Shown here piece by piece: positions 41,158 to 62,208 of a stretch of 64,000 bases of DNA. Location of the stretch: contig OY762463.1 in assembly GCA_963665815.1 (NCBI GenBank), positions 2,688,001 to 2,752,000 on the forward strand, given 5' to 3'. The position numbers were made by a program, and so were the translations under genes. Under the pieces are notes generated by a model. It was not told the origin of the DNA. It saw only the letters and a list, made by a program, of their open reading frames with translations, and did not search any database. Each line of letters starts with the position of its first letter. Positions within the stretch are counted from its first letter, which is position 1. Source of the stretch: Candidatus Cloacimonadales bacterium. GTDB taxonomy: Bacteria; Cloacimonadota; Cloacimonadia; Cloacimonadales; JAIOQZ01.

Positions 41158-44100
41158 ATGAAACTAAAAAACATTCGTATCAGCATCAAGCTTCTTGTTG
41201 TCAGTCTCGTGCTGGTCGTCGCATCATTATTGATCTTAGGTTTTGTTAACCTGAAGCTTACCAGGGATAGCGTTTACGATCTTGTTGAATCCTCGTTGAA
41301 CGAACAGACGCAAACGGCAATGACATTGGCCAAGCATGGTCTGAATGCTGCATCAGTATCACTTGAAAAGAGTATTGACATGCTTAACAAGCTTGTGAAT
41401 GCACAAGGTGGATTTCAGATTAACACGAAAGCTGAAGTAAATGTGCGAGCTGTTAACCAGGTTACCAGAAAAGCATCTGATATTTCAATCCCAAGGATGC
41501 AGATTAACAAGCAACAGGTGTATAGAAATTACGATATAGTTGATGAAGTAAGAACGCTGAACAATGTCAGTGCAACAATTTTCCAGATTATTCCGGACGG
41601 TATGCTTCGCATATCAACCAATGTGGTTAAGGATAATCAGGAAAGGGCTGTAGACACATATATACCGACAGATTCACCAGTGTACAAAACCATAATGGAA
41701 GGAAAAACATATTCCGGTATTGCTACGATACTTGGAAAACCATACTTCACAATATACAGTCCTGTTAAAGATAATCAGAATCGAATTATCGGTGCATTAT
41801 ATGCAGGTAATCCTGTAAATTCTGCAATGATTGCAACAATTGAAATGGTTAATTCAGCCAAAGTAGGAAAAACAGGTTACATGTACATCATGGATAGTGA
41901 TGGAGTTCTATTACAGCATCCAACAAGTATTGGAAAGAGCATCCTTTCACATGATTTCACAAAGGAAATGGTGGAAAAGAAAAACGGAGTTATCGTTTAC
42001 GAATGGGAGGGACGTGACAAGATTACCTCATATAAGTATAACGAAGATCTCGACTGGATTATAGCTTCAGGTTCATACTTCGAAGATTACACCAGCATTC
42101 TTGGTAAAATTGGTGGAGCGATCATTATTGCGATCATTATTGCTTCTATTGTTGCATTAATTATGATGATGCTCTTGAGTCGACACATTAATACCGGTGT
42201 ACTGGACATCGTATCTCAAGTTTCTACACTCACTGAAAGTGTACAACTTGGTAAACTGGACCTTCGAGGTGAACCGGAAGAGACTTTTATAGATTTCCGG
42301 TCTATCATTTCAGGAATTAATGGTGTTATTGATGTGTTTGTAGAACCTATAAATCTTACTGCAGAGTATGTTGATAGAATCAGTAAGGGCGATCTTCCTC
42401 CAAAGATTACCGATACATATCATGGAGATTTTAATGAGATTAAAAATAATTTAAATCAGTGTATAGATGTTATCTCTGAATTGTTGAAAGAGACAGAGAG
42501 AATGATTGATTCTGCAAAACAAGGTCAGCTTGATCAACGTGGTGATGCAGATGCATATCAACATGGCTGGAAGGACCTGGTACGTGGTATTAACGAACTG
42601 GTTGATACTTTTGTTGCACCTATTAATCTTACTGCAGAGTATGTGGATCGTATCAGTAAGGGTGATCTACCTCCTAAAATTACTGAAACCTATTATGGTG
42701 ATTTCAATGAAATAAAAAACAATTTGAATCAGTGTATAGACGTGCTTAATAGTTTTGTGACTGATATGAAATATATGAGTGATCAACAGGATGAAGGGGA
42801 TATTGACGTATTTATGCCTGCTGAAAACTATTTCGGGGCATACAATGTGATGGCGCAAGGATCAAACGAAATGGTGAAATCCCACATTAATGCTGTTCTT
42901 GATATGATCCGTATCATTGGGGCCTTTGGAAATGGTGAATTCGATGTTCAAATGGACCAATACCCGGGTAAAAAACAGATTATAAATAACAGTGTAGAAG
43001 CAGTGCGTGCAAACCTGAAAAGCGTTAATGCTCAAGTACAGGAACTTATTGATGCAGTCAGGGAAGGAAAACTGGATATCCGTGGTGATGCAGAAAAATA
43101 TAAAGGTGACTGGAACAGGATGTTCTCAGGTTTAAATGAATTAGTAGACTCATTCGTAGCTCCTATCAATTTTACCGCAGAATATGTTGATCGCATCAGT
43201 AAAGGTAATCTACCGCCAAAGATTACTGATGTTTATTATGGTGACTTCAATGAAATTAAACATAACTTTAATCAGTTGATTGACGTATTAAATGATTTTA
43301 TCACTGACATGAAAAATATGAGTGATGAGCATGATGCTGGAGATATTGATATTGTTATGCCGGCCTCCAAGTATGACGGTGCATATCGACAAATGGCTCA
43401 GGGTGTAAATAATATGGTTGATGGTCACATAAGTATTATCAAGAAGGCAATGGCTTGTGTCAAAGCTTTTGGTGAAGGTAATTTTGATGCTTCAATCGAG
43501 CAATTTCCGGGTAAGAAAGCATTCATCAACGATATTATCGAAGCTGTTCGTTCAAACCTGAAGGGTATCAGTGAACAAGTTCAGGATCAGATAGATGCTG
43601 CTAAACAAGGTGACCTGAAAGACAGGGCTGATGTAGACGAATTCAGTGGTGGCTGGAAGGATATGGTGGCAGGCATCAACGATCTTCTCGACGCGATTGT
43701 CACACCAATAAATGAAGTAATGCATGTTATGGCGAGATTAGCCGACAAGGAATTAAGTGTACGAGTTTCCGGTAATTACAAAGGTGACCTGAACGAGTTT
43801 AAGCAGAATGTAAACAATGCAGCAGACAATCTGGATGATGCACTCAGTCAGGTTGATGCCGCAGTAGATCAGATTGGCAGTGCTGCTGAACAAATAGGTA
43901 GTGGTGGTCAGAGTCTGGCAGAGGGCACATCCGAGATGGCTAGTAGTCTTGAGGAGATTGCCAGCAGTCTGGAAGAGGTGAACAGTTTGACAGTTAATAA
44001 TGCAGATAATGCGAAAGCTGGTTTAAACTTGAGCAATCAGGTATTGATTAACGTTTCTAAAGGAAACGATGCCATGGGTTCAATGACAGAAGCAATGAAC

Positions 44101-44739
44101 AGTATCAGCAAGTCAGCTGAGGAAACAGGCAAAATTATCAAGACTATTGATGAGATAGCTTTCCAAACCAACCTGCTCGCACTGAATGCAGCAGTTGAGG
44201 CTGCTCACGCCGGTGAAGCAGGCAAAGGATTTGCTGTTGTGGCTGAAGAGGTGAAGAATCTTGCATTACGCAGTGCTGAGGCTGCTAAGAATACAAGTGA
44301 ACTCATTGCCGGCTCATTGAAGAACAGCGAGGTTGGAAGCAAGATTGTGCAACAGGTGACTGAATCATTCGATGAAATTCGCACAAGCTTTGAAAAGGTA
44401 AACAGTATAGTAAATGAAATCAGTGCATCGAGTGATGAGCAAGCCCAGGGTATAGGTCAAGTAAATACAGCAATTAACGAATTGAACAAGCTCACTCAAC
44501 GCAATGCAGCTAATGCTGAGGAATCAGCGAGTGCTGCAGAGGAACTGAATAGTCAGAGTGCTGAATTGGGCAATATGGTAGCCAAATTTACTCTGTCAAA
44601 GACAATGTCTTCAAAACGGCATAAACCGGGAAAAGATCGTCGTCAGCAAATGCAGATAACTGATAGACCGAAAGATTTATATGAAGTAGATCCCCGGGAG
44701 CAGTTACCTCTTGATGATGATGAATTTGGTGATTTCTAA
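41158..44739 (+). CDS. Methyl-accepting chemotaxis protein with Cache sensor and poly-HAMP linker
   Basis: [33 protein letters not shown] signalling hairpin; Cache motifs ([16 protein letters not shown]); C-terminal EFGDF. Confidence 0.95.
42346..43286 (+). repeat. Three internal HAMP-unit repeats in MCP
   Basis: PIN(L/F)[11 protein letters not shown](D/N)[20 protein letters not shown] near 42346, 42619, 43162. Confidence 0.85.
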
Positions 44740-45052: not shown

Positions 45053-46561
45053 TTATTTAGAAAGCTTCATTACTTTCTTAACTGTACTTGTTCTTTTGAT
45101 AACATCTTTTTGAGTGCTGCTGGAAAATACCTGTGTATTTATTGATGATGGTGTATTTGAAGGTACTTGAGAGTCAGCAACTCCCGCTGAGAATAATGAA
45201 GCCCATAATGAATTATCTGAGCTGAGTACAGAAGCATCAAAGTTAAGGTCTTCTGTATGATAGCCATCAGAAACACCAGATGAGAAAGCGTTTACCCATT
45301 GAGTATTATCTGAGGAAACAAGGTATCCGTCACCATTGATATCTCCACAATAGATCGCCCAGACTCCGGTTTCAACTTCAACTACGGCTACAGGACCGGT
45401 TGTATAAGAATTGGCAGCTGCTATAGAGAAGTCAATCATATTAGCTGTTGCAGCAGAACCTGTGAATGAGACAATAGACGCAGACATGATGTCCATGTGG
45501 TTTCTATGACGGAGTACAATATAATAGTCTCCTGGAGTTGCACTGTCAAACTTCATGTAATCTACAGTATTATCTGTTGCGTATTCTATACCGACGATAG
45601 ATCCGTCGTCTTTTATAAGCATTGATTTCTGTTGTACTGTTACTCCGTCAACAGTTGCTCTGAGCTCAACTGAAATCCAGTCAACAACATCTGCCGGCAT
45701 AGCTGCAACAGTAGCAGCATCAGCGTATGGAGATGTAAGCGGAAGGTAATTGTTAGCATTGAGGGTCAGATTCATTGATTGTGAGCTTGTATATGCACCC
45801 TGAAGGAATGCTTTTGCTTTTACATAAGAAACCGTACTTCCCTGAAGTCCTTCACCGTTAACTTTAACATATCTTGTAGCTGCTGAAGATGTTGTAAGGT
45901 TGATATATCCTGAAGATTCACCAATAGTTGATGGTCTGAATCTAACATAAACTACAGTTTCTGCAATTTCACCGGCTGATGGTGTGATATTCAGAGTATT
46001 TGAAAAAGTTGTAAAATTATCAAGAGAGAATTCGTAACCGGCTGGTGCTGATATTACAACATCACTGCTTGTAAGGTCATATCCCTTGATAACAAATGTA
46101 TGTATTTCACTTGAGCTGCCTGTTTCAACCTGGCCATACTCGCTTGAATATCCATAAGGATTAACATAAATTCTTGGAGAAGTCGTATTGAGTGGGAAGG
46201 GATTAGCAGTATTATATACCGGAGACCCTGCTCCCTGAATCTGTACTGTCATTGTTCCGGCATAAACTCCATTATAGAAGAAATCTGCATCCATAAGATC
46301 ATCTTCTTCCCATGGGGTTTCAAAGTTACCGACATTCATACCAACAATTCCATAAGTACTGTTGTAGTGTGAACCGTATGAACTTTCAGTAAGAATTTCT
46401 GCCGGTCTGTCGATCATGTAACCGCGTGCAGTAATAGTACCGTCAGCAGGATAAACTCCACTGGAAATTTCTACAACAGTTCCGATATTTTTAGGCATTC
46501 CGGCTGCATAAACTGAAACAACTGCCAATAAAACTAATAATATAAGTATGTTTCTTTTCAT
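45053..46561 (-). CDS. Secreted Ig-like protein with C-terminal dockerin/EF-hand-like motifs
   Basis: Signal peptide; VKAKAFLQGAY, VVDWISVELR, HRNH, GDINGDG and DLNFD motifs. Confidence 0.65.
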   Translation of the reverse strand: MKRNILILLVLLAVVSVYAAGMPKNIGTVVEISSGVYPADGTITARGYMIDRPAEILTESSYGSHYNSTYGIVGMNVGNFETPWEEDDLMDADFFYNGVYAGTMTVQIQGAGSPVYNTANPFPLNTTSPRIYVNPYGYSSEYGQVETGSSSEIHTFVIKGYDLTSSDVVISAPAGYEFSLDNFTTFSNTLNITPSAGEIAETVVYVRFRPSTIGESSGYINLTTSSAATRYVKVNGEGLQGSTVSYVKAKAFLQGAYTSSQSMNLTLNANNYLPLTSPYADAATVAAMPADVVDWISVELRATVDGVTVQQKSMLIKDDGSIVGIEYATDNTVDYMKFDSATPGDYYIVLRHRNHMDIMSASIVSFTGSAATANMIDFSIAAANSYTTGPVAVVEVETGVWAIYCGDINGDGYLVSSDNTQWVNAFSSGVSDGYHTEDLNFDASVLSSDNSLWASLFSAGVADSQVPSNTPSSINTQVFSSSTQKDVIKRTSTVKKVMKLSK

Positions 46562-46563
46562 GA

Positions 46564-47172
46564 TTAATCTCCTTGAACAGTTGGCCATACAGTTTCTGAT
46601 GTAACAGTAACAACATAGCCCATACCGGTTGTGACGTTCCAGACAGTTTCTGAACCTGTGTATTCAACCCAGTCCTGTGCTGTCTTATCATATTGCATAA
46701 CGCTTGAACAACCAGGGATAGCATTCATTAACTGAGCACAGTCAGTGATATCGGATTGTTCGAAAGGAAGCATTATAAGATTTTTTCCTGATTTCAATGT
46801 ATAGCTTGCATTCTGCACCGGTTTACCATAAACATAGAATGAACTTCCTGCACTCACATGACACATGTAAGCAGTAGCAGGATCTACATTCCAGTCTGGT
46901 GTCCATGGCTGAGCATCGTAGGATTTCCACATTTGAGAATCAGGATTCCAGAAAGATACGTTTTCGCAATTTGTAATGTTATTGTAAATACTGCTTATGT
47001 TTGTTCCGGCTGTAACCTGAAAAGGAGTTGTAAAAACATTATAACCGGAAGAACCATCATTTCCAAGGTCGAATTTTACAAAACCGACAACCTCGGATGG
47101 ATCTGATTCAATTGCGCATAGAAGCAGGGGTACAATAAGTGTTAAGATAATAAGAAAGTACTTTTTTTTCAT
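46564..47172 (-). CDS. Hypothetical secreted protein with internal duplication
   Basis: Signal peptide; two similar halves (GYN..../GKNL...., W..Y....W.V....Y). Confidence 0.65.
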   Translation of the reverse strand: MKKKYFLIILTLIVPLLLCAIESDPSEVVGFVKFDLGNDGSSGYNVFTTPFQVTAGTNISSIYNNITNCENVSFWNPDSQMWKSYDAQPWTPDWNVDPATAYMCHVSAGSSFYVYGKPVQNASYTLKSGKNLIMLPFEQSDITDCAQLMNAIPGCSSVMQYDKTAQDWVEYTGSETVWNVTTGMGYVVTVTSETVWPTVQGD

Positions 47173-49997: not shown

Positions 49998-50065
49998 TTA
50001 TGTCAAAAATCATTGACAAAATTTCATTATAAAATTCCATAAGAAAAATTATATATGAGGACAAT

Positions 50066-51355
50066 ATGTATAAAATAATACTACTTTCTATACTTCTAAT
50101 AGGAATAATGAGCTGTGATAATCCCTCTACAGGTATAAACTCAAATGCTGATGTCTCAGATGAAATAGTTTATAAGGATCTCAAGGGTACAGTAGTTGAC
50201 TGCATTACGTATGAAATATTCAGCAATGCAAAAGTAAAAATTAAGAACGATAAGTACACTTATGAAACTGTGACTGACAGTACAGGGCTTTTCCATTTCA
50301 CTGATATTGCTGCTGGTAACTATACAGTTTTCACCGAACTTGTATGGCAGGGAGTAACTTTCAAAGACTCATTAGAGGATTTTTCAACAGATGATGCCTT
50401 TAGTAAATTTGCATTATGCAAAGTTTCAAGCAGTATTGTGGGTAATATTCTTCATGAAATGCATAGTGCAAACAATTATTCTAATGAAGTAAGTATTATT
50501 GGTACAGATATTAAAAGAGTAGTAGCTTCAAGAACTGACTTCATGATCAACGGAATTATGCCGGGGGATAGGGAGTTTCTAATCATAAATGGAAGTGCTA
50601 CATCTCCTGACTATATCTGGTCAATAAACCTTAAACCAGGTGGAATTCTACCAATTGGGATCTTCGTTCCAAGTATCTTTGATACAGTAAGATACAATTA
50701 CAATGATTATGTATCAGTCAATGAATATAATGGAGAAGATATAGTATTTATCAACGATATATATTATTATGCAATTGATAAATCTCTTTTCAGCTATAAT
50801 CCTGCAACTGAGACTAAAACAGAAATATATAATGATGATAATTGGGCAAACTTCTCTATTTGTACAGATCATGATGACAAAATTTTCATTTCCGGATCTT
50901 ACAGAGATAACTCAGCTACATTTGAAAGAAAATGCTGTGTTTATTCCATTTCAGAGAGTGCTGTGACTGAAACTATTGAATTTGATTTTATTAATTACAG
51001 TACTGAACTGAGTTATTCTATTTTACATAACTCACTGATTCAGATATACGGTGAGACAATCAGAGTTTATGATGTTTCTTCCGGAGCTGCAAATACTACC
51101 TCTTTCGACTATCCTGGTTATCATTCTGACTGCGATTTTTATGTTTGTGAAAATAATAATGTTATTCTGTGGCAAGATGGATTATTCAATATTTACAATA
51201 GTATTGATGATATGACAATTATCAAATCTTTTAAAATCATAAATCCTCATGATCCGGACAAAAGGCTAAATGGAGATGTAAAAATAGTAGAACTGGATGG
51301 TTATTTATACTTAGTAAGTCACAACTGCTTCAGAAGATTGTATTTTGATGAGTGA
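50066..51355 (+). CDS. Lipoprotein with carboxypeptidase-regulatory-like domain
   Basis: Lipobox IMSC; TVTDSTGLFHF..IAAGNYTV. Confidence 0.7.
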   Translation: MYKIILLSILLIGIMSCDNPSTGINSNADVSDEIVYKDLKGTVVDCITYEIFSNAKVKIKNDKYTYETVTDSTGLFHFTDIAAGNYTVFTELVWQGVTFKDSLEDFSTDDAFSKFALCKVSSSIVGNILHEMHSANNYSNEVSIIGTDIKRVVASRTDFMINGIMPGDREFLIINGSATSPDYIWSINLKPGGILPIGIFVPSIFDTVRYNYNDYVSVNEYNGEDIVFINDIYYYAIDKSLFSYNPATETKTEIYNDDNWANFSICTDHDDKIFISGSYRDNSATFERKCCVYSISESAVTETIEFDFINYSTELSYSILHNSLIQIYGETIRVYDVSSGAANTTSFDYPGYHSDCDFYVCENNNVILWQDGLFNIYNSIDDMTIIKSFKIINPHDPDKRLNGDVKIVELDGYLYLVSHNCFRRLYFDE

Positions 51356-51420
51356 TACTATAGAATTGCAAATGAATACTACACTATCCCAATCCCCTTG
51401 CAAGTAATCACAGAAACTTT

Positions 51421-51485
51421 GCAATGGTGGACTTGAATGGTTCTAAAAGCTGTTATAGGAGTGCATTGATTGTGTCAATGCGAAG
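51421..51485 (+). repeat. 65-bp direct repeat, copy 1
   Basis: 58/65 identical to 56103-56167; contains gcattga-ttgtg-tcaatgc hairpin. Confidence 0.9.
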
Positions 51486-51567
51486 TCGACATAGTCGATT
51501 TGCTCCGATATTTAAGCCAACCCTACGATTGTCTCTACGCGGTGTATGAACAGCAGAGAGTTTTCAG

Positions 51568-51595
51568 ATGTAGAGACGTTGCATGCAACGTCTAA
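51568..51595 (+). repeat. GTAG-type REP-like palindrome, left copy
   Basis: atgtagagacgttgcatgcaacgtctaa; exact reverse complement of 55942-55969. Confidence 0.9.
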
Positions 51596-51695
51596 ATATA
51601 CTCCCTGAAGGAGGTTAATTGCATTTAAGCGAGCTCAAGTCTTTCCAAACTTCGTTTGTAACAACTCAAGTTCACGCATAGATTTTTCACCATGA

Positions 51696-54600
51696 TTATT
51701 GTTCCCTACTTTCCTGCTCCATATTATTTGTAACCTGCTCAAACAACTGCCACAGGGGTTCCTCTATAGAATCCTTTATCTCTATGGCAGGTGTACCATT
51801 TGCATAATTTATAAGAAACTGTGAAAACTGTTTTATCTCTGCCATTTCCTGTGGGATGCCTGCATGTATCTGCTGCAGTTGCTCCAATTTTTCTGCTCTA
51901 TCCACAGCCATAACAGGCATACTGGCAACACTATGCGCCATTTGTATCAATTGTACAAGTTGTTGTGTAAGATTATTTTGATTATTATCTTCTTCCTTGT
52001 AATTCGATACAATATGCTGCTCAATTTCCTCATAATCCAATCCCATTTTATCTGTAACTTTTCTTAGAAGTTCTATGCCTGTTTTCATTAAGAGATTAAC
52101 GCAATTATTGGCTACAATTTTTGCATTGGGTGATCTTAGATTAACAAAAATAAAGATAGCTTTAAGGTAATATTCCAATGCTTTTTCCGGTTGACCGATA
52201 TCATCAAAAATATTACCCATGTTGCCATAGGAGTTTGCCTGCCCCAGCAAATTTCCAATTTGTATTTTCAAATCTAAAGACTTTTTATGATATTCCAATG
52301 CTTTTTCCGGTTGACCGGTATCATCAAAAATATTACCCATGTTGCCATATTGATTCGCCTGTCCCTGCAGGTTTCCGAGTTTAACATTTATTTCAAGTGC
52401 TTTCTCATAATGTTCCAATGCCTTCTGAGGTTCACCTGTTCGATAGTAGATGCTTCCCATGTTGCCATAATCATCAGCCATTCCTCTAATATTTCCAAGT
52501 TTTTCATCTATCTCTAATGCTTTGCTATGATATTCCAATGCTTTCTGAGGTTGACCTGTATCAGCAAAAATCAAACCCATGTTGCCATATTGATTTGCCT
52601 GCCCCTGCAGATTTCCAAGACTGACATTTATTTCAAGTGCTTTCTCATAATACTCCAATGCTTTCTGAGGTTCACCTGTTCGATAGTAGATGCTTCCCAT
52701 GTTGCCATATAGAGTAGCCTGTCCCTGTAGATTTCCAAGCTTAGCATTTATTTCAAGTGCTTTCTCATAATATTCCAATGCTTTCTGAGGTTCACCAGTA
52801 TCAGCATAAATCAAACCCATGTTGCCATATTGAGCAGCCTGTCCTTGCAAATTTCCGAGCTTAACATTTATTTCAAGTGCTTTCTCATAATATTCCAATG
52901 CTTTCTGAGGTTCACCAGTATCAGCATAAATCAAACCCATGTTGCCATATTGAGCAGCCTGTCCCTGTAGATTTCCTAGGCTGATATTTATTTCAAGTGC
53001 TTTCTCAAAATATTCCAATGCTTTTCCCGGTTGACCGGTACGATAGTAGACGCTTCCTATGTTGCCATATTGGTTTGCCTGTCCCTGCAGGTTTCCGAGC
53101 TTAACATTTATATCAAGTGCTTTCTCATAATATTCCAATGCTTTCAGAGGTTCTCCTGTATTGAAATAAATATTACCCATGTTGCCATAGGAATTTGCCT
53201 GTCCCTGCAGATTTCCGAGCTTAACATTAATTTCAAGTGTTTTCTCATAATATTCCAATGCTTTCTGAGGTTCTCCTGTAACTAAATAAATAATGCCCAA
53301 TCTATTCATAACTTCAGCTCTGTATTCTTCCGAGATATTGGTTTCTAAGGATTCAAGATTCAGGTTTCTGGCAAACTCAACATACCCCCAAATTATCAAT
53401 TGGTCTTCAACAGACAAAGCTACTTCAACAGCCTTATCAAATTCCTCTGCAAGTAAATAGTGTGTTCTGACTGCAAGGTGATTATCAACAGTTCTGTTAT
53501 TCTCAAAAACAATATTGCAATACTCCGCAGCTTTTATGTTAAGCTGTTTAAACTCTAATTTTTTCATTGTATCATAGAAGAATTCTGCAGTGAGTCTATG
53601 GGTATAGAAAAGGTGTTTCTCATTTTCTCTTATGTGCACAACAAGGGAAAGGTTCAAGAGCTTTTCCATTAAATCCAATTCAAAATCTCCAATCAGGTGT
53701 GCAATTCCATCTGTTTCTACCGGGCTTTTGTATATGGAAAGTGCTTTTAATATGCGGTTCTGTTCTTCAGTCAGCAGGTTAGTTAGTTCCTGCAAAACAA
53801 ATGGAGCAAATTCTTCTTTACTGCCTGTTCTTAGTTTTGCTTTCAGTTTGTTAATTATCTTGTGGAACTTCTTTTTCTCAATCTCAAAGAGTTTAGTAAA
53901 TCTGCTTTCTCCGGGGAGCAGAGCATCCAGCAGATCAAGTGCACGCGGATTTTTCCCCACAGTCTTATAAATCTCTCTTAAATTCTTCTCATTCAACTGC
54001 TGCAAATTGTTACAGAAATACATTCTTTTATTAATATCGGTATCAGTATATTCCGGTACTTCTATAATGTGGTTTTCAAATTCCGGAACATTGTAGCGAG
54101 TGGACACCAGCAGAATGGATTTTTTACCATTAAACAGCCTTTCAATTATCTTGAGCAGTCCATAAGCCTCATCATGCACTTTGCAATCATCCTGCAGGTT
54201 CTGGTTATCTTCAAAGTTATCAAAAACAATTGTCCAGTTATGTTCATGCATATACTGATTATACAGATAAGTCAGCTTCTCTTTTGCATTGTTAAGCTTA
54301 GAGAGTTCATCTTCCATTTTTTTCGCTTCAGTATCATAAGTTTTGGCAATTTGCAGACAGAGCTTTTCCATAAAACCTGCCTGAGTTAACGGTCCCTGGA
54401 ATTCAATGATCTTATAGTTGTCTCTGGCACAGAACGAGAGTATTCTCGCTGTCAGAGTAGATTTTCCTATTCCTCCCGGACCTTTCAGGATCACCATTGG
54501 ATCGTGCTTTTTTACTCGGAAAATAATCTCCCGAATCTGTATACGCCTGCCGATAAACCCACGCGGTACTGTATTAGTCGTAAAAGTCTTTTTAGAAGCT

Positions 54601-55823
54601 GAAGATTCACCTTCTATTCTATGCTGAGAGAAATCTTTTCTGGAGATACCGGTTTCGGATGAGAAAAGTTCAGGGATATCAACTTCGGTTTTGTTTTGTC
54701 TTTTTTTATTGCTTTCCCATCTGGCAATAGCTTCTTTACCTGCTGAGAACGCTTCGGAAATAGTTTTGTCTTCTATAAGTGCATGGAATAATCCTATATT
54801 AAAAATCATGGAAGCATCATGTGAAATAGATTGTTTCATACCTATTACATAAGGGATACCGGATTTATGCAGTGTTTCTGCAATACTGAGATAAACCCCT
54901 TTTTCGTTTGCTTTGGCAGAATGGCAGGAGGACAGTATCACCAGTTTCAGGTCAACACCATCGGTTTTCAGTTTCTCCAGTTCCTGTGCCAGCTCTTCTC
55001 CTGATACAAATTTCTTTTCTACCGTATTATCCTCTGTAAGCTGTTCGAACAGGAGAAATGTTTTGCCGTCTTTGTCTTTTGTGCCATGGGCAGTAATCTG
55101 CAGAATATCGTGTTTACCGTTTTTCAGGTAGCCAGCCATATCATAGAGGGTAGAGTTAACCATATCGGGTATATCGAGGAACAGATCTGCCTGAGAGAAA
55201 TCACTGAGAGAGTCCAGCATAACCTGTTGTTCTTTCTCGTAGAAGATGTCGGAGTCCGGAGGACTGGCAGTAACCGAGAGGATTTTGATTTGGGGTGGGG
55301 TGGGTATAGCAGGGATGGAGTCTTCAACTAATTCTCGTATTCTACTCACAATGTCGTCATCTATTTCTTTCTTGCTATCCAGCTTATTCATTATTTGCAG
55401 TAAGAGATTTATCACAACTGCTATACTATTGCTGTCCTCAAGATACTTTATGTAATACTCTTTTAACTCCTCTATTCTATTATCCAAATCATTTATACTT
55501 ATCAGACTGTTTATAACATCAGGCATATGATCAAGTTTTCTGAGGTAATTAGATAATTCTGTTGTTGAGACTTGCAGACGTTCAATCTGTCTGCCTACCT
55601 CATATATATCCCATAAAAAATTTTGATCCTCCATAGTATACATAACAGATTTGAATGGAAACTCGAAAGCTTTTTCAAAGGCTTTCATATAAACAGCTAC
55701 TTTGTCAAGTGAGGCCTTGTTAAGTCCTGTTTGAATTGAATCTGCATATTTCTTAATATCGTTTACACTTACACCAAATATACTTGCTAAGCCTGCAGCA
55801 ATATCGAAAATAATCTTTGCCAT
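51696..55823 (-). CDS. NLR-like protein: N-terminal helical domain, CHAT (caspase-like) protease, STAND ATPase, ten TPR repeats
   Basis: ITAHG and ILSSCHS (CHAT His/Cys dyad); FIGR, GPGGIGKST (Walker A), IVFDNFE (Walker B); 40-aa TPR repeats; start at ATG after GGAGGTG. Confidence 0.88.
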   Translation of the reverse strand: MAKIIFDIAAGLASIFGVSVNDIKKYADSIQTGLNKASLDKVAVYMKAFEKAFEFPFKSVMYTMEDQNFLWDIYEVGRQIERLQVSTTELSNYLRKLDHMPDVINSLISINDLDNRIEELKEYYIKYLEDSNSIAVVINLLLQIMNKLDSKKEIDDDIVSRIRELVEDSIPAIPTPPQIKILSVTASPPDSDIFYEKEQQVMLDSLSDFSQADLFLDIPDMVNSTLYDMAGYLKNGKHDILQITAHGTKDKDGKTFLLFEQLTEDNTVEKKFVSGEELAQELEKLKTDGVDLKLVILSSCHSAKANEKGVYLSIAETLHKSGIPYVIGMKQSISHDASMIFNIGLFHALIEDKTISEAFSAGKEAIARWESNKKRQNKTEVDIPELFSSETGISRKDFSQHRIEGESSASKKTFTTNTVPRGFIGRRIQIREIIFRVKKHDPMVILKGPGGIGKSTLTARILSFCARDNYKIIEFQGPLTQAGFMEKLCLQIAKTYDTEAKKMEDELSKLNNAKEKLTYLYNQYMHEHNWTIVFDNFEDNQNLQDDCKVHDEAYGLLKIIERLFNGKKSILLVSTRYNVPEFENHIIEVPEYTDTDINKRMYFCNNLQQLNEKNLREIYKTVGKNPRALDLLDALLPGESRFTKLFEIEKKKFHKIINKLKAKLRTGSKEEFAPFVLQELTNLLTEEQNRILKALSIYKSPVETDGIAHLIGDFELDLMEKLLNLSLVVHIRENEKHLFYTHRLTAEFFYDTMKKLEFKQLNIKAAEYCNIVFENNRTVDNHLAVRTHYLLAEEFDKAVEVALSVEDQLIIWGYVEFARNLNLESLETNISEEYRAEVMNRLGIIYLVTGEPQKALEYYEKTLEINVKLGNLQGQANSYGNMGNIYFNTGEPLKALEYYEKALDINVKLGNLQGQANQYGNIGSVYYRTGQPGKALEYFEKALEINISLGNLQGQAAQYGNMGLIYADTGEPQKALEYYEKALEINVKLGNLQGQAAQYGNMGLIYADTGEPQKALEYYEKALEINAKLGNLQGQATLYGNMGSIYYRTGEPQKALEYYEKALEINVSLGNLQGQANQYGNMGLIFADTGQPQKALEYHSKALEIDEKLGNIRGMADDYGNMGSIYYRTGEPQKALEHYEKALEINVKLGNLQGQANQYGNMGNIFDDTGQPEKALEYHKKSLDLKIQIGNLLGQANSYGNMGNIFDDIGQPEKALEYYLKAIFIFVNLRSPNAKIVANNCVNLLMKTGIELLRKVTDKMGLDYEEIEQHIVSNYKEEDNNQNNLTQQLVQLIQMAHSVASMPVMAVDRAEKLEQLQQIHAGIPQEMAEIKQFSQFLINYANGTPAIEIKDSIEEPLWQLFEQVTNNMEQESREQ
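52140..53300 (-). repeat. Tandem ~120-bp TPR-coding repeats (about 10 units)
   Basis: cccatgttgccata and ttccaatgc cores recur every 120 bp; protein unit GNLQGQAxxYGNMGxIxxxTGxPxKALEY. Confidence 0.95.
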
Positions 55824-55941
55824 CTTCACCTCCTGAGAGTTGGTCAATTGCTGGCAGAAATTGAGAAAAAGGTCAATTCATTTTTTTGTGCTACGTTACA
55901 ACTACACCGGGGAAATCCGTAATATATTAAATTTTGTTTAC

Positions 55942-55969
55942 TTAGACGTTGCATGCAACGTCTCTACAT
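55942..55969 (-). repeat. GTAG-type REP-like palindrome, right copy
   Basis: ttagacgttgcatgcaacgtctctacat; degenerate third copy at 56196-56219. Confidence 0.9.
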
Positions 55970-56030
55970 AGCGATGTGAAACATCGCTGTGCGTTGTTGA
56001 TTAAATGACCTTGCGAATGGTACTTAGACC

Positions 56031-56094
56031 CGTAGATGTTTTCGAAGAAATACATCCAGAATTGACGTAGATGTTTTCGAAGAAACACATCCAG
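56031..56094 (+). repeat. Two tandem 29-bp GTAG-initiated imperfect palindromes
   Basis: cgtagatgttttcgaagaaa(t/c)acatccag at 56031-56059 and 56066-56094. Confidence 0.85.
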
Positions 56095-56102
56095 TGAAGT
56101 TC

Positions 56103-56167
56103 GCAATGGTGGGCTTTAATGGTTCTAAGGGCTGTTTTGGGAGTGCATTGACTGTGTCAATGCGAAG
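56103..56167 (+). repeat. 65-bp direct repeat, copy 2
   Basis: 58/65 identical to 51421-51485. Confidence 0.9.
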
Positions 56168-56308
56168 AATAACTAATAATATTTGTTCAAAACAAAGATG
56201 TTGCATGCAATGTCTCTACGAAGTTGGGCGGATCCATCGATTATGTGAATAAACTCACCCCTGGCTAAATTATAACTACGCCTTAAACCTCAATCAATTA
56301 CTGAACTT

Positions 56309-57619
56309 TTACTTCCCGTTAAGCTGATTTTCCTTAAGCTTCTTCCACCATTTCAAACGTTTTTCTATATCTTTCTCAAATCCGAATTTGGAAGGTGTAT
56401 AATACTCTTTTTCGCTCATGTGTTCCGGGAAATACTTCTGATAGAAATATCTGTTATCATGGTCATGTGAGTATTGGTAATCTTTGCCGTAATCGAGGTC
56501 TTTCATCAATTTTGTGGGTGCATTTCTTATAACCAGCGGAACAGGTAAATGACTTGTTTTAATTGCGTCAGCAGCAGCCATCTTATATGCTGAGTAAACA
56601 GCATTGCTTTTGGGTGCTGTTGCCAGATAAACAACCAGCTGAGCCAGAGCTGTGTTTGCTTCCGGCATACCAAGTGTATGAATTGCCTCTTTAGCACTTA
56701 TTGCCTGGACAAGTGCCTGCGGATCAGCAAGTCCTACATCTTCTGAGGCAAAACGAATCAGCCTGCGAACAACATACATCGGGTCTTCTCCGGCTTCCAG
56801 CATACGAGCCAGCCAGTACAGACCGGCCTGAGTATCGCTGCCGCGCAGAGACTTATGCAGAGCTGATATCACATTATAATGCTCTTCTTTATTCTTGTCA
56901 TAATTGAGTGTTCTGGAGTTAATAATCCTTGCAGCAAACTCGGTAGTAATAACCTGATCTTTCATGGTGTAATTCAGGATCAGTTCAAGACTGTTAAGAG
57001 CTCTTCTGGCATCTCCCCCACACTGCATCATCAATAAATCAAGCACATCCTCAGGAAGCTCTCTATCAAGCTTTTTCAGAGCATTTTTCAGAATATCAGC
57101 AATAGAACCATCCGACAGTTTTTCCAGTACTATAACCTGACATCTCGACAATAAAGCAGGGATAACCTCAAAAGAAGGATTCTCTGTAGTTGCACCAATG
57201 AGAATGACAGCTCCGGTTTCGATATGATGCAGAAATGCATCCTGTTGAGCCTTGTTAAATCTATGTATCTCATCTATGAAAATTATTGTACGTTTATTCT
57301 GTTCTTTAAGGCTGTATTCAGCTTCCTGCATAACAGCTTTCACATCTTTTATACTGGAAAGCACAGCACTGAAAGCCACAAACCTTTCTTCGGAGTTTTT
57401 CTCAATATATCTGGCAATAGTTGTTTTACCGCATCCGGGAGGTCCCCACATAATAATCGACGAATACTTACCGGTAGAAATCATTCTTCTGAGCAAGGTA
57501 TTTTCTCCCAGAATCTTGTCCTGTCCGAGTATCTCTTTCAAGTCTGAGGGACGCATCTTTTCGGCAAGCGGGATGTTTGTACTCTGTTTTTCACTATCGA
57601 ATAATTCAAGCTGTTTCAT
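56309..57619 (-). CDS. rarA: Replication-associated recombination protein A (RarA/MgsA)
   Basis: PLAEKMRP, WGPPGCGKTT, FIDEIHRFNKAQQD, GATTENPSFE, ISALHKSLRGSD, ASEDVGLADP. Confidence 0.96.
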   Translation of the reverse strand: MKQLELFDSEKQSTNIPLAEKMRPSDLKEILGQDKILGENTLLRRMISTGKYSSIIMWGPPGCGKTTIARYIEKNSEERFVAFSAVLSSIKDVKAVMQEAEYSLKEQNKRTIIFIDEIHRFNKAQQDAFLHHIETGAVILIGATTENPSFEVIPALLSRCQVIVLEKLSDGSIADILKNALKKLDRELPEDVLDLLMMQCGGDARRALNSLELILNYTMKDQVITTEFAARIINSRTLNYDKNKEEHYNVISALHKSLRGSDTQAGLYWLARMLEAGEDPMYVVRRLIRFASEDVGLADPQALVQAISAKEAIHTLGMPEANTALAQLVVYLATAPKSNAVYSAYKMAAADAIKTSHLPVPLVIRNAPTKLMKDLDYGKDYQYSHDHDNRYFYQKYFPEHMSEKEYYTPSKFGFEKDIEKRLKWWKKLKENQLNGK

Positions 57620-59297: not shown

Positions 59298-59996
59298 TTA
59301 GTATTTATAACGTTTCTGTAATTTTTTGAGGATTATAACAAACTCACCTTTGGGTAGTTCAGAGGTCATTGTATCTAGCTCATCGAGGTTTCCCCAGAAG
59401 ATCTGTTCTTCAGGTTGAGTCAGTTTGTAGAAAAGCATTGCCTGCCTTTTCCCCCCAAGTATCATTTTCATATCTCTCAGAACCTGTTTCATTCTGTAAG
59501 GAGCTTCCAGGAATACAAGATCTATGTTATTGTTCAGTTTTCTAATTGCGTTGATTCGATTTTCCCTGTTTGGCGGGAGAAATCCATAATACTGAAAGTT
59601 ATCTAAAGGTAATCCTGAACACATTAAGGAAGCCATAATTGAGGATGGTCCGGGAATAGGTATTACAGGAATATTCATCTGATGGCATTGCCAGACAAGA
59701 TTATTGCCCGGATCAGCAAACAAAGGTGTTCCAGCATCGGAAATAAGAGCCAGAGCTTCTTTCTCATTCAGCAGGCGATTAATAATCTCCTTTGTGCTTT
59801 CTCTCTCGTTATGTTCGTTCAGAAGAATGAAGTCCTTCTTTATATCCAGAGCTCTCAACATACTGCAGCCCTGCTTTCTTTCTTCCATAATGACACAGTC
59901 ACATTCTTTAAGTACTCTTAAAGCTCTCAGAGTAATATCTTCCATATTGCCTATAGGCATGGCGACTATATAAAGTCCATATTTAAGTTTTTCCAT
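59298..59996 (-). CDS. rsmI: 16S rRNA (cytidine1402-2'-O)-methyltransferase
   Basis: LYIVAMPIGNMEDITLRAL, ISDAGTP..ADPG, PIPGPS, GFLP, EAPYR, KGEFV. Confidence 0.92.
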   Translation of the reverse strand: MEKLKYGLYIVAMPIGNMEDITLRALRVLKECDCVIMEERKQGCSMLRALDIKKDFILLNEHNERESTKEIINRLLNEKEALALISDAGTPLFADPGNNLVWQCHQMNIPVIPIPGPSSIMASLMCSGLPLDNFQYYGFLPPNRENRINAIRKLNNNIDLVFLEAPYRMKQVLRDMKMILGGKRQAMLFYKLTQPEEQIFWGNLDELDTMTSELPKGEFVIILKKLQKRYKY

Positions 59997-62208
59997 TTGA
60001 TCTCCATTTTTGTATCAGGCTTTTTACAGCAGTTTTAATCTTTTCGGCTTTCTCAGGGAAACAATATGCAAGATACTTAACCTTTGAAAACAAGATAAAT
60101 ATAATTGATAACAAAATCAAAATATTCTGTAGAAATGTCCACACCTTATTATCGTGATGTATAATTCTGAAATTAATATTATGATTACCGGGGTTAACAG
60201 GAAAACCTACCAGACAGTGATTAACAGGGATGTACCCTGAATTTTTTCCATCAACTCTCAACGAATATAATCCTTCAAAATAGTTTTTCGCCAGAACAAC
60301 AAATGCAGTGTCTTTAACATTTATCTCAAAGGAAACAGAATTTTCTACCAGCTTAATATCTTTAATATCTACACTGTCTGAATAACTTCTGCAGTATAAA
60401 GAATCATTCACAACAAAAGCTCTTTCGGCAATATTATCCGTAAAGACAAGACTATCGAGTACATCATCAACAGAATTACAGTTTACAAGCTCTGTAACTA
60501 TTCTTACAATAGGCAGTCTGTCCGTATTTTCATACATAATCAGTTCATTTTCTCTGTCATACTCAACATATTTCAGGTTTTGAAGTTTCAATTTCATGTT
60601 GAACAGGATATACTTCACATTTAGCATGTTTATAATATTCCAGTTGAAGGGGTCTCCGGTAATTCTTTGTTTATCAACCAGCTTTTCTGTTACTCTTCTG
60701 TATCGGGATGAAATAAAATCAGTATTACCATTCAACATTTTGAGATGATCAGCTCGAGGATCACTGTAAAAATCCTTTCCCGGATAAAAGAAATATCCAT
60801 CCTCTGTGTTATAGCCCTCAAGTTTACTGCTATGGAATACTAATTCTTCATCTCTTGAACTGTCCCTATTATCCAGATTGTAATTGACATTCATGAAAAG
60901 GAATTCAGAGAAGATTACAACTGCACACAATAAAAGAAGCAGAGATCCGGGTATTTTTCTGTGAATAAATGCAAACAATCCCAGAAGCATAATACATGAA
61001 ACCGGATAGAAAAAAAGTGAATTTCTGAATATCAAACCGTTTACCGTGGTTTCACTTACAAATAGATATGAAATCAGATTAAGTATGAAAAATCCAACAA
61101 TAACAGCTGCTGAGATAAGAATACTCATTGGCTTTGCGATAATCACATAGTTATTGCTGAGATCTGAAAACCAGTCATTGATATAAAATATCAGTAATAA
61201 ACCGCAAAATAGAAATAACTCACTTGCTGAATGACTTTCCGTTTTTATGTTAATAACAAAATTTACAACAATTAGTATCGAAATGTAAAGAAGTGGTTTT
61301 ACAGATTTCTTGAATGATGTCAGAGAATACACAAGCAGTAAAGTAAATAAAAGTAAAGATATTCCTACCCCTGAGGTTATACTGAATAGAGCTTTCAAGT
61401 TCAGAGGTAAATTGATCAGTGAATATACTTTCTCAGACATACTGTTAACCTGGTTAACTCCATTGAATACAAAATGTACTAATTCCAATTGTTTAATGGT
61501 TATAGAATTCTTTGACCATGTAATTATGAGATTAGGGAGAATAACCAATACCGACAGAAAATAGAAGCCCAGCTTTTTTAGATATACCTTCATTCTCTTT
61601 TTTCTCAGTGAATCGACAGAATTCCAGAGAATTGCAATCAGTGAAAAAGATATTGTGAATATTGAAATTCTGACGTTATTGGAATAAGCAGTTAAGATGA
61701 AATTGAACAGGAAGAACCCCATCCTCGTAAGTGAAAACTTACTTATATAAAGATAGAGAGAAAGAATAAACCATGGTAGAAAAGCAGCAGATTCAACCAG
61801 AATCATATTTTCCTGTTTTAATAGCGGAAGAACATAAAGAAGCAGATACATTATTCCCAGTAAAACAGCAATTACAGAATCCCTTGATTTCAGACTGACT
61901 ATTGTATAAACACCGAATACTGCCAATACCGGTAATATCCATTGAGCCCCAAAACAATTGATAATACCTGTTATTATCGAGTTGATTGACATCACCCCAT
62001 CATTAACACTTATTAAATCAGGAGTACCGAAAAAGGAATTATCATTCCAGTTACTGCTTGTTATGCTGTTGTCTGTATTCTGACAGCTGAACAGAATATT
62101 TTTATTGGTTTCAGAAGCAAAAAACAGAGTTATCGTCATCAGTATAAGAAGACATACTGCATGCTTTATTGATCTGTTTCTTACTTCCGAATCATAGATG
62201 AATTTCAT
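59983..62208 (-). CDS. YfhO-like multi-pass membrane protein (putative GT-C glycosyltransferase)
   Basis: Many TM helices, FLPWF, NMLNVKYI, ENTDRLP, VDG....PVN....F.V.PG.H.I.F C-terminal pattern. Confidence 0.6.
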   Translation of the reverse strand: MKFIYDSEVRNRSIKHAVCLLILMTITLFFASETNKNILFSCQNTDNSITSSNWNDNSFFGTPDLISVNDGVMSINSIITGIINCFGAQWILPVLAVFGVYTIVSLKSRDSVIAVLLGIMYLLLYVLPLLKQENMILVESAAFLPWFILSLYLYISKFSLTRMGFFLFNFILTAYSNNVRISIFTISFSLIAILWNSVDSLRKKRMKVYLKKLGFYFLSVLVILPNLIITWSKNSITIKQLELVHFVFNGVNQVNSMSEKVYSLINLPLNLKALFSITSGVGISLLLFTLLLVYSLTSFKKSVKPLLYISILIVVNFVINIKTESHSASELFLFCGLLLIFYINDWFSDLSNNYVIIAKPMSILISAAVIVGFFILNLISYLFVSETTVNGLIFRNSLFFYPVSCIMLLGLFAFIHRKIPGSLLLLLCAVVIFSEFLFMNVNYNLDNRDSSRDEELVFHSSKLEGYNTEDGYFFYPGKDFYSDPRADHLKMLNGNTDFISSRYRRVTEKLVDKQRITGDPFNWNIINMLNVKYILFNMKLKLQNLKYVEYDRENELIMYENTDRLPIVRIVTELVNCNSVDDVLDSLVFTDNIAERAFVVNDSLYCRSYSDSVDIKDIKLVENSVSFEINVKDTAFVVLAKNYFEGLYSLRVDGKNSGYIPVNHCLVGFPVNPGNHNINFRIIHHDNKVWTFLQNILILLSIIFILFSKVKYLAYCFPEKAEKIKTAVKSLIQKWRSNGKT

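Follow-up and report, generated by a model that had tools for sequence, protein, structure and literature searches.

Avs proteins, the bacterial NLR-like STAND sensors with N-terminal effectors, were reportedly described by Gao et al. in 2022, and caspase/CHAT-STAND-TPR proteins have reportedly been noted since Koonin and Aravind in 2002 (cited in 10.1101/2020.01.06.895854). Effector swapping on STAND sensors and the fusion of STAND sensors to caspase-like proteases are already known and well documented. According to PMC13581612, Avs sensors are tripartite, with an effector at the N-terminus, a P-loop NTPase in the center and a repeat sensor at the C-terminus, and Avs7 alone has at least 20 N-terminal effector types; PMC12642450 describes Avs sensors with a fused caspase-like protease that activates death effectors. 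Here, we analyzed a 64,000-nt stretch of DNA from a Candidatus Cloacimonadales bacterium (contig OY762463.1, positions 2,688,001 to 2,752,000; hereafter the window) and focus on one gene in it, located at 51696..55823 (-), whose predicted product P0002 shares the overall layout of Avs sensors and, with the caspase-Avs fusions, the placement of a caspase-fold protease N-terminal to a STAND sensor and possibly the logic by which a protease licenses an effector. As in Avs, N-terminal effectors are extensively exchanged and the family has spread horizontally. However, two domains precede the NTPase here, a variable warhead and then a constant CHAT domain, no Avs match is found with PADLOC, and all Pfam STAND models remain under their cut-offs. 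Unlike in the caspase-Avs fusions, the candidate effector is fused ahead of the protease, and in contrast to both these fusions and the protease-effector modules (EACC1, MBL, alpha/beta-hydrolase, Pepco, gasdermin), no effector gene neighbors the protease here or in 29 related loci. We propose, with a probability of roughly 0.6, that P0002 is a stand-alone, horizontally mobile NLR-like conflict sensor, probably directed against phages, that combines warhead, protease, switch and sensor. In the papers searched, including PMC7159879, PMC8195603, PMC12642450 and PMC13581612, we found no description of an effector-CHAT-NTPase family that exchanges its cassettes repeatedly and lacks a partner gene, although the supplementary clade tables of the 2025-2026 Avs studies may list the clade.

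One line of evidence comes from the N-terminal slot. A word-indexed homologue search with P0002 returned 114 proteins at E<=0.001; in BLASTP comparisons, the CHAT region is matched by 71 of these (P0003-P0073) and residues 1-180 by none. In 67 homologues, the beginning of CHAT is complete and preceded by 60 or more residues, and the N-regions of these 67 fall into 11 BLAST clusters (29, 24, 3, 3 and 2 members plus six singletons), and as judged by this clustering, at least 11 unrelated N-domain types are mounted on the conserved CHAT-STAND core. Pfam analysis of 12 N-region representatives reveals TIR_2 domains (30 in all, namely the 29-member cluster and the singleton P0015), SIR2_2 in P0068, SMEK_N in three proteins, and Schlafen AlbA_2 with HATPase_c_4 in P0044; the N-region of P0018 is a second AAA_16/TPR module, and no Pfam family was found for the N-regions of the 24-member cluster (helB), the P0004 group (helC), the P0006 pair, P0003 and P0002. 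All 30 TIR N-domains keep a Glu-containing motif, C-x-x-E in 12 and I-x-x-x-E-L in 18, whose Glu we take to be the catalytic one. On a maximum-likelihood tree of the core (IQ-TREE in quick mode, 67 rows and 462 columns, N-regions and linker removed), the N-domain type changes at least 21 times, the minimum possible being 8 and the shuffled mean 30.9, with 0 of 200 shuffles as low; TIR requires 13 changes, of which starred branches force at least 11, and helB requires 15, of which at least 10 are forced. The N-terminus is far from invariant across homologues, and the proposal of an earlier sequence-only reading, that it represents an effector-type module, is well supported by position, as the same slot holds TIR, SIR2, Schlafen and SMEK domains.

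The exchange has a sharp boundary. In P0002, the N-domain is followed by a Pro-rich linker of sequence I-P-A-I-P-T-P-P-Q-I-K (55284..55313, -), as had been noticed from the sequence, and this linker ends at the family-invariant Q178-I-K180, with Q178 and K180, directly before CHAT, invariant in 61 aligned members. When near-identical cores with different N-domains are compared, identity starts exactly at Q-I-K-I-L-S in four of the five displayed pairs (P0042/P0073, P0009/P0054, P0057/P0033 and P0002/P0003), the fifth pair, P0044/P0045, not being aligned within the 330-residue comparison frame. The domain junction at the CHAT start is thus proven by homologue comparison. The sequence-only reading had suggested this junction from an AT-richer N-terminal coding region. 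The compositional difference itself is real, with a G+C content (GC) of 0.329 and a third-position value (GC3) of 0.306 in codons 1-170 against 0.415 and 0.409 in CHAT, but it is weak evidence of a junction, because GC3 swings between 0.25 and 0.55 over the first 510 codons; given a window GC of 0.355, the composition of the N-module is nearer to the host's than that of the CHAT start.

The N-domain of P0002, termed helA (residues 1-170; 55314..55823, -), comprises a hydrophobic segment at residues 2-20, helices and one beta-hairpin, and according to the searches it is a very rare member of the N-module pool. Against 1,835,955,588 representatives, phmmer with residues 1-180 returned one match at E<=0.001, P0116 (E 3.9e-15). 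BLASTP aligns helA of P0002 with P0116 at 36% identity over 131 aa (E 4e-20) and P0116 with the N-region of P0003 at 33% over 84 aa (E 9e-12), and a search with a three-sequence helA profile, among longer proteins, found only P0116, P0002 and P0003. The core tree places P0002 beside P0003 as its sister with a support of 100, the two being 86% identical across 444 columns. Their cores are 86-88% identical whereas their N-domains share only ~18%, and the N-domain of P0002 is closer to P0116 than to the N-domain of P0003, indicating that module and chassis have discordant histories. The own genome, a single contig of 98.66% completeness, contains a single helA copy, the only other match having an E of 0.99.

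Apart from noise, residues 1-180 of P0002 have no Pfam match (E<=1), no NCBIfam match either, and a best Atlas score of 0.78, below lead level. To the eye of the sequence-only reading, this was a helical N-terminus with a hydrophobic start; consistent with that description, an AlphaFold2 (AF2) model of residues 1-180, built from a three-row alignment, contains nine helices besides the beta-hairpin at 61-70, and residues 2-20 have a Kyte-Doolittle (KD) mean of 1.75. The model has a mean predicted local distance difference test score (pLDDT) of 63.3 and a predicted template modelling score (pTM) of 0.56; its core at 35-135 reaches ~75-88, and confidence is low in the first helix 2-16 (pLDDT 36-40) and the tail 136-180. 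The same reading had suggested a HeLo/MLKL/Bell-like fold. A structure search with this only moderately confident model did not recover one in PDB or BFVD: Foldseek against PDB gave 0 matches at E<=0.001 (best E 0.74), BFVD gave 0 matches, and a wide VIA-align search gave 1 of 48,161 chains at Z>=5, whose Z of 5.2 lies within the tool's stated noise range. In its position as an N-terminal helical NLR-type domain, and in the hydrophobic first helix of the P0002 copy, helA resembles HeLo, HeLo-like, MLKL, plant CC (Rx_N) and Bell domains, and Bell domains are also N-terminal in bacterial NLR architectures (Dyrka et al. 2020, 10.1101/2020.01.06.895854). Yet helA gave no sequence (Pfam E<=1) or fold match to them in these searches, contains a beta-hairpin in its model, is ~170 aa long compared with 120-140 aa for Bell, is separated from the NTPase by CHAT, and has two relatives without a clearly hydrophobic first helix. 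Given the known death effectors that take its place in relatives, helA is probably a new effector with an unmatched fold.

P0116 presents helA on a different chassis. It is encoded, with a 100% match, in a genome of the same genus, G001 (G001:C13:780466-783708; locus L019/L021 8467-11712), in which a search with full-length P0116 finds its own gene as the single match and PF12770 has 0 matches at 100% completeness; conversely, the P0116 scaffold was not found in the own genome. Residues 190-1081 of P0116 have no Pfam match and are predicted to form an all-alpha solenoid with block pLDDT mostly 80-96, for which Foldseek detects only a generic HEAT/ARM likeness (importins, CAND; E about 3e-5, TM-score 0.12-0.16). 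The scaffold has 204 relatives at E<=0.001. Among the best 120 of these 204, 37 have an N-region of <50 aa and 81 have N-regions of >=60 aa that were placed by BLAST clustering, in clusters of 48, 20 and 10 (the last including the TIR proteins P0144/P0145) plus the singletons P0116, P0137, which is a SIR2 protein with PADLOC matches to pAgo-associated SIR2, and P0153, which is a Schlafen protein. P0168 and P0189 carry Schlafen AlbA_2 in their precomputed Pfam lists and match the N-region of P0044. In the scaffold family P0116-P0235, all-alpha solenoid proteins of ~870 aa, two unnamed kinds of N-domain of ~300 and ~390 aa were observed as well. The layout of P0116 corresponds to that of the DSR type (SIR2 plus solenoid, PMC11850899), and the scaffold family likewise carries SIR2, TIR or Schlafen domains N-terminally. 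In contrast to the DSR type, the solenoid scaffold has no PADLOC match in five members, in which only the SIR2 and TIR N-domains were matched, and P0002 uses a CHAT-STAND-TPR chassis instead. The scaffold family looks like a hitherto undescribed DSR-type defence family in which an effector is joined to a sensor; in the papers searched, we found a description of neither helA nor the P0116 solenoid family. Given the placement of P0002 and P0116, helA occupies, on two unrelated chassis, a slot that is otherwise filled by TIR, SIR2 or Schlafen. In addition, the existence of a protease-free relative in a CHAT-less genome argues that helA is intrinsically independent of CHAT.

Other N-domains of the family are helical, too. 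Uniting the helical clusters helA, helB and helC into one group was rejected, as profile-profile comparisons of helA/helB, helA/helC and helB/helC, and of each against TIR, gave a probability of <=4.6%. An N-terminal hydrophobic helix, scored as KD15 >= 1.5 starting within the first 8 residues, is present in 18/24 helB, 2/4 helC and 1/3 helA (P0002) domains, and in 0/30 TIR and 0/8 other domains; it is thus typical of the non-enzymatic helical modules, although within helA P0002 alone has it. An acidic residue at positions 2-5, a HeLo/MLKL/Bell signature according to 10.1101/2020.01.06.895854, occurs in 21/24 helB versus 16/30 TIR domains and does not discriminate between them. At least three further unannotated helical N-domain types were observed, in helB (within P0010-P0073), in P0004/P0005/P0008 and in the homologue from a related genome, G006 (L010 6450-9977, -); their first helix is hydrophobic, includes Gly/Pro and in many cases precedes [YF]-[DE]-K-[IL]. 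These types alternate with TIR on near-identical chassis and are candidates for membrane-directed effectors. The N-terminal 200 aa of P0006/P0017 form an alpha/beta domain with no Pfam match, containing a hydrophobic strand-D-x-x-x-F and a D-S-G-D-A-I-F-F-F-G motif, which we presume to be reminiscent of nucleotide-cyclase or GGDEF-like folds.

Behind the N-domain, P0002 has a constant chassis of CHAT, STAND, TPR and C-terminal domains with an intact catalytic dyad and intact Walker motifs, on which the N-module is freely exchanged. A Pfam scan of P0002 matched 38 families, of which the best 25 were inspected. In the CHAT (caspase-fold) protease domain (residues 181-400; 54624..55283, -), PF12770 covers residues 234-368 at 50 bits versus a cut-off of 24, representing the only CHAT match in the own genome. 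Within the Pfam-matched stretch, H246 (55086-55088) is invariant and C300 (54924-54926) is conserved in at least 90% of the 61 aligned homologues. The STAND-type P-loop NTPase and its helical/winged-helix region follow (residues 401-800; 53424..54623, -), with the P-loop NTPase located by Pfam at residues 422-594. Its Walker A motif reads G448-P-G-G-I-G-K454-S-T (G448-T456; 54456-54482, -) and its Walker B residue is D535 in h-h-h-D-N-F-E; G448, G451, G453, K454, S455 and D535-N-F-E are invariant across the same 61 homologues, and a G-x-N-P-R-A-L motif is located at residue 623. The predictions of an intact His/Cys CHAT domain and of a STAND-type ATPase therefore hold, the latter with Pfam STAND models just below their cut-offs: nSTAND1 scores 26.7/26.5 versus 27.1, NB-ARC 20.6 versus 23.5 when residues 401-800 are scanned alone, NACHT 20.2-21.3 versus 26.7 and AAA_16 25.7-27.9 versus 32.6. 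The precomputed Pfam lists of homologues contain PF20703, PF00931, PF20720 and PF25199, and a PDB sequence search with the CHAT and STAND residues 181-800 found nothing under E 0.09.

The TPR sensor array (residues 801-1215; 52179..53423, -), defined by TPR profiles and a repeat scan and already recognized in the sequence-only reading, matches TPR_1 at E 1e-82 in 10 stretches, with further TPR profiles (TPR_12, TPR_2, TPR_8, TPR_10 and TPR_7) far above cut-off. It comprises ten 40-aa units, the first at residue 839, with a mean pairwise identity of 0.66 and a maximum of 0.95, and variation between units is concentrated at unit positions 6, 9, 10, 39 and 40. At the DNA level, a tandem repeat with a 120-nt unit, 9.4 copies and 79% matches spans 52168-53299. 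The TPR units of P0003 are far more diverse and differ in number. Fungal NLRs with highly homogenized TPR, ANK or WD repeats were reportedly described by Dyrka et al. in 2014; P0002 resembles them in having units up to 95% identical, few variable positions and a DNA tandem repeat, and differs from them in being bacterial. Beyond the array lies a C-terminal domain of ~160 aa (residues 1216-1375; 51699..52178, -), which was absent from the description in the sequence-only reading and falls outside known families, with 0 matches in Pfam, NCBIfam and Atlas. It is conserved in a subset of homologues: at 57% identity in P0003, at 33-37% in P0004, P0005 and P0008, and weakly in several others, the identity outside P0003 being 21-37%.

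By analogy with Avs/NLR proteins (PMC13581612, PMC12642450), we propose a working model for P0002. A ligand would be bound by the homogenized TPR array, perhaps together with the C-terminal domain, and this would trigger NTP-dependent oligomerization. Oligomerization would bring CHAT domains together and switch them on, and it would also cluster the N-domains, leading to a toxic output and to growth arrest or death of the infected cell. We tentatively suggest that helA itself acts in a non-enzymatic manner, possibly directed to the membrane via its hydrophobic first helix, whereas cleavage at the Q-I-K boundary is an unlikely, optional licensing step. The constant protease may serve as a second effector on host or phage proteins, as a licensing factor that cleaves cassettes at Q-I-K, or as both. 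A complex prediction with two CHAT domains, the N-domain and the linker scored 0.00 and is uninformative either way.

Several points weigh against the conflict-sensor model. The STAND assignment of P0002 consists of motifs and sub-threshold Pfam scores. PADLOC-DB v2 returned no Avs or other defence-system match for P0002, its only matches being TPR, C3a156 and a weak SAVED_CHAT (E 6.3e-5); the library used dates from 2023, and newer Avs families, about 90 of which are given in 10.64898/2026.08.25.746987, are outside its coverage. The gene sits among housekeeping genes, outside any recognizable defence island. The helA fold has no structural neighbor in Foldseek, VIA-align or BFVD, with a model of moderate confidence (pLDDT 63). 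In addition, the KD19 of 1.75 at residues 2-20 of P0002 has no counterpart in its relatives, whose maximum is 0.76 in P0116 (not N-terminal) and 1.30 in P0003, and the membrane reading of helA is weakened because the hydrophobic first helix is not conserved. Moreover, simple proximity activation leaves unexplained why a protease is retained between every warhead and the NTPase.

A rival explanation is release. The sequence-only reading had proposed that CHAT may release its own N-terminal domain. In such a model, activated CHAT would cleave the linker, either in cis or from one protomer to another, and free residues 1 to ~175 as a pore-forming death domain, the one-gene equivalent of a protease plus gasdermin or EACC1. 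In support, a catalytically intact CHAT is kept beside every kind of N-module, the module boundary coincides with the invariant Q178 and K180, residues 2-20 are hydrophobic, a separate substrate gene was not found at the own locus or at 29 related loci, and protease-licensed pore formers beside caspase-Avs fusions provide a precedent (PMC12642450). However, Q-I-K runs straight into I-L-S-x-T-A-S-P, the conserved CHAT start that resembles a first strand, and because the motif continues in this way, its invariance may be structural. The closest helA relative, P0116, lies on a protease-free scaffold in a genome without a CHAT match, and a pore-former fold was not found in the PDB and VIA-align searches. 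TIR and SIR2 domains, which occupy the same slot, are activated by oligomerization rather than release. Taken together, we regard self-release as rather unlikely. A broader version, in which CHAT-STAND-TPR is a universal launcher whose Q-x-K cut frees any N-cargo and helA is a new membrane-active death domain shuffled within the genus, appears improbable.

Alternatively, CHAT could be the sole executioner, acting on host or phage proteins, with the N-domain as a regulatory prodomain, a localization module or a membrane anchor. In favor of this, E. coli is defended by a caspase-like protease that has no effector (PMC12642450), many caspase-bearing conflict proteins have transmembrane helices (Kaur et al. 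2020, PMC7159879), and the hydrophobic N-terminal segment of P0002 could be a tether. Yet genuine effector enzymes occupy this slot, namely SIR2 and TIR, the latter keeping its Glu motif in 30/30, and the same modules are found on a protease-free scaffold. In the E. coli defence, the protease is reportedly activated by a TIR product. We consider CHAT as the sole executioner improbable, too.

The remaining two explanations are very improbable. An EAD/Death-like adaptor, which would recruit a separately encoded effector bearing the same domain by homotypic contact, is compatible with the small size, alpha-helical make-up, terminal position and non-catalytic nature of helA, which EADs share (PMC8195603), and with the occurrence of helA on two different scaffolds, but the EAD principle needs several copies per genome or locus, whereas the own one-contig genome has a single helA copy and G001 a single match to full-length P0116, the gene itself. 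A non-immune STAND-TPR signalling protein for a housekeeping or developmental process would fit the housekeeping neighbors, the lack of PADLOC system matches and the existence of TPR-STAND regulators (the NCBIfam matches of P0002 to AfsR and FimS involve TPR parts only), but it is at odds with the patchy distribution in 2/41 related genomes, the repeated exchange of death-effector modules, the homogenized TPR repeats with few hypervariable positions and the protease with an intact dyad.

The core is present in 2 of 41 related genomes, namely the own genome and G006 (38% identity), and a scan of species-representative genomes found 44 loci. The metagenome-assembled genomes with relatives are labelled Melioribacteraceae, Aminicenantes, Cloacimonadota, Deferribacteres, Planctomycetota, Armatimonadota, Spirochaetes, Clostridia, Bacteroidota and others. 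In the 29 closer loci of these 44 (L022-L050), on which the neighbor analysis was performed, the ORF (open reading frame) clusters found in at least 3 loci are downstream TPR fragments of the gene itself and generic families: histidine kinases/response regulators, ABC/HlyD/OEP transport, AMP-binding enzymes and one AAA-ATPase_like+PDDEXK protein. No conserved partner gene was found at the own locus or among these 29, in agreement with the single-gene system that had been postulated. In G006, the CHAT-STAND homologue is preceded at a distance of 1.5 kb by a reverse transcriptase (RVT_1; L010 11491-12825, -), which may belong to a retron, a DRT or a group II intron; two small ORFs lie between them. 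A diversity-generating retroelement at this homologue was considered and dropped, with 0 direct repeats of >=40 nt and no template/variable pair; such an element at the reverse transcriptase locus is unlikely.

At the own locus, a scan of the window gives one long minus-strand ORF, 51696..55847 (-), and its probable start is the ATG at 55823, giving 1,375 codons plus stop (P0002, 1,375 aa); a Shine-Dalgarno-like AGGAGG (55829..55834, -) is read directly 5 nt before this ATG. A promoter/terminator scan gave 9 promoter-like sites versus 15.7 expected, and Rfam had 0 matches in the 64-kb window. The upstream neighbor, on the same strand, encodes an ATPase of the RarA/MgsA type (56312-57619), with DAGK-like, NUDIX and methylase genes beyond it, and the downstream neighbors are convergent and encode proteins with type IX secretion system (T9SS) sorting domains. 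The adjoining genes include no gasdermin-like, EACC1, MBL-fold or alpha/beta-hydrolase gene; the earlier statement that no separate substrate gene is adjacent is therefore correct for these RarA-type, DAGK, NUDIX and T9SS neighbors.

The upstream intergenic region (55824..56311, 488 nt) contains dispersed repeat elements: a 71-nt unit (56097-56167), two 29-nt units forming a tandem pair (56031-56094) and palindromes at 55936-55969 and 56196-56219. These repeat families recur downstream (51415..51601), with a 71-nt unit at 51415-51485 and a palindrome at 51568-51601; the two 71-nt units are 87% identical. The palindrome in the repeats around the gene (51415-51601, 55930-56230) has the core GACGTTGCATGCAACGTC. 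An interpretation of the flanking 71-nt repeats as insertion scars was rejected: a 301-nt query from the upstream spacer containing the 71-nt unit has 46 matches, its own place included, in the 3.96-Mb single-contig genome, so the flanking units are dispersed intergenic repeats. Repeat copies are present in G001, too, one 71-nt copy lying downstream of its RarA-type gene, which is 98% identical. G001 has no CHAT-STAND gene, and the region beside its RarA-type gene is rearranged, so that a clean empty site is not definable. When 50001-56097 is compared with G001:C13:894377-916109, conserved flanks (81% and 94% DNA identity) enclose different contents, ~6 kb with a CarboxypepD_reg protein and the NLR-like gene in the own genome (G000) and ~22 kb of metabolic genes, including GAPDH, FBP aldolase, aldehyde:ferredoxin oxidoreductase and ThiF, in G001.

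Elsewhere in the window, a chemoreceptor of 1,193 aa (41158-44739, +) combines a Cache_3-Cache_2 sensor with a poly-HAMP stalk of unusual length (HAMP_2 at E 5.8e-107 in 5 stretches, plus HAMP_N3). Three ORFs of 511, 202 and 741 aa (45053-47172, -, and 59983-62208, -) have 0 Pfam matches at E<=0.001.

If the launcher reading were true, P0002 would be a one-polypeptide sensor-protease-effector, the bacterial counterpart of release-type inflammasome sensors, whose cargo would be TIR, SIR2, Schlafen, helB or helA, with helA having moved between this chassis and a protease-free solenoid sensor. Our analysis also brings to light an unannotated alpha-solenoid sensor family of at least 204 members and marks as candidate death effectors at least four types of helical N-domain that lack annotation: helA, helB, helC and the one found in G006. 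Near-identical chassis that carry either a TIR or a helical domain represent a natural experiment on whether a fused protease licenses fused effectors.

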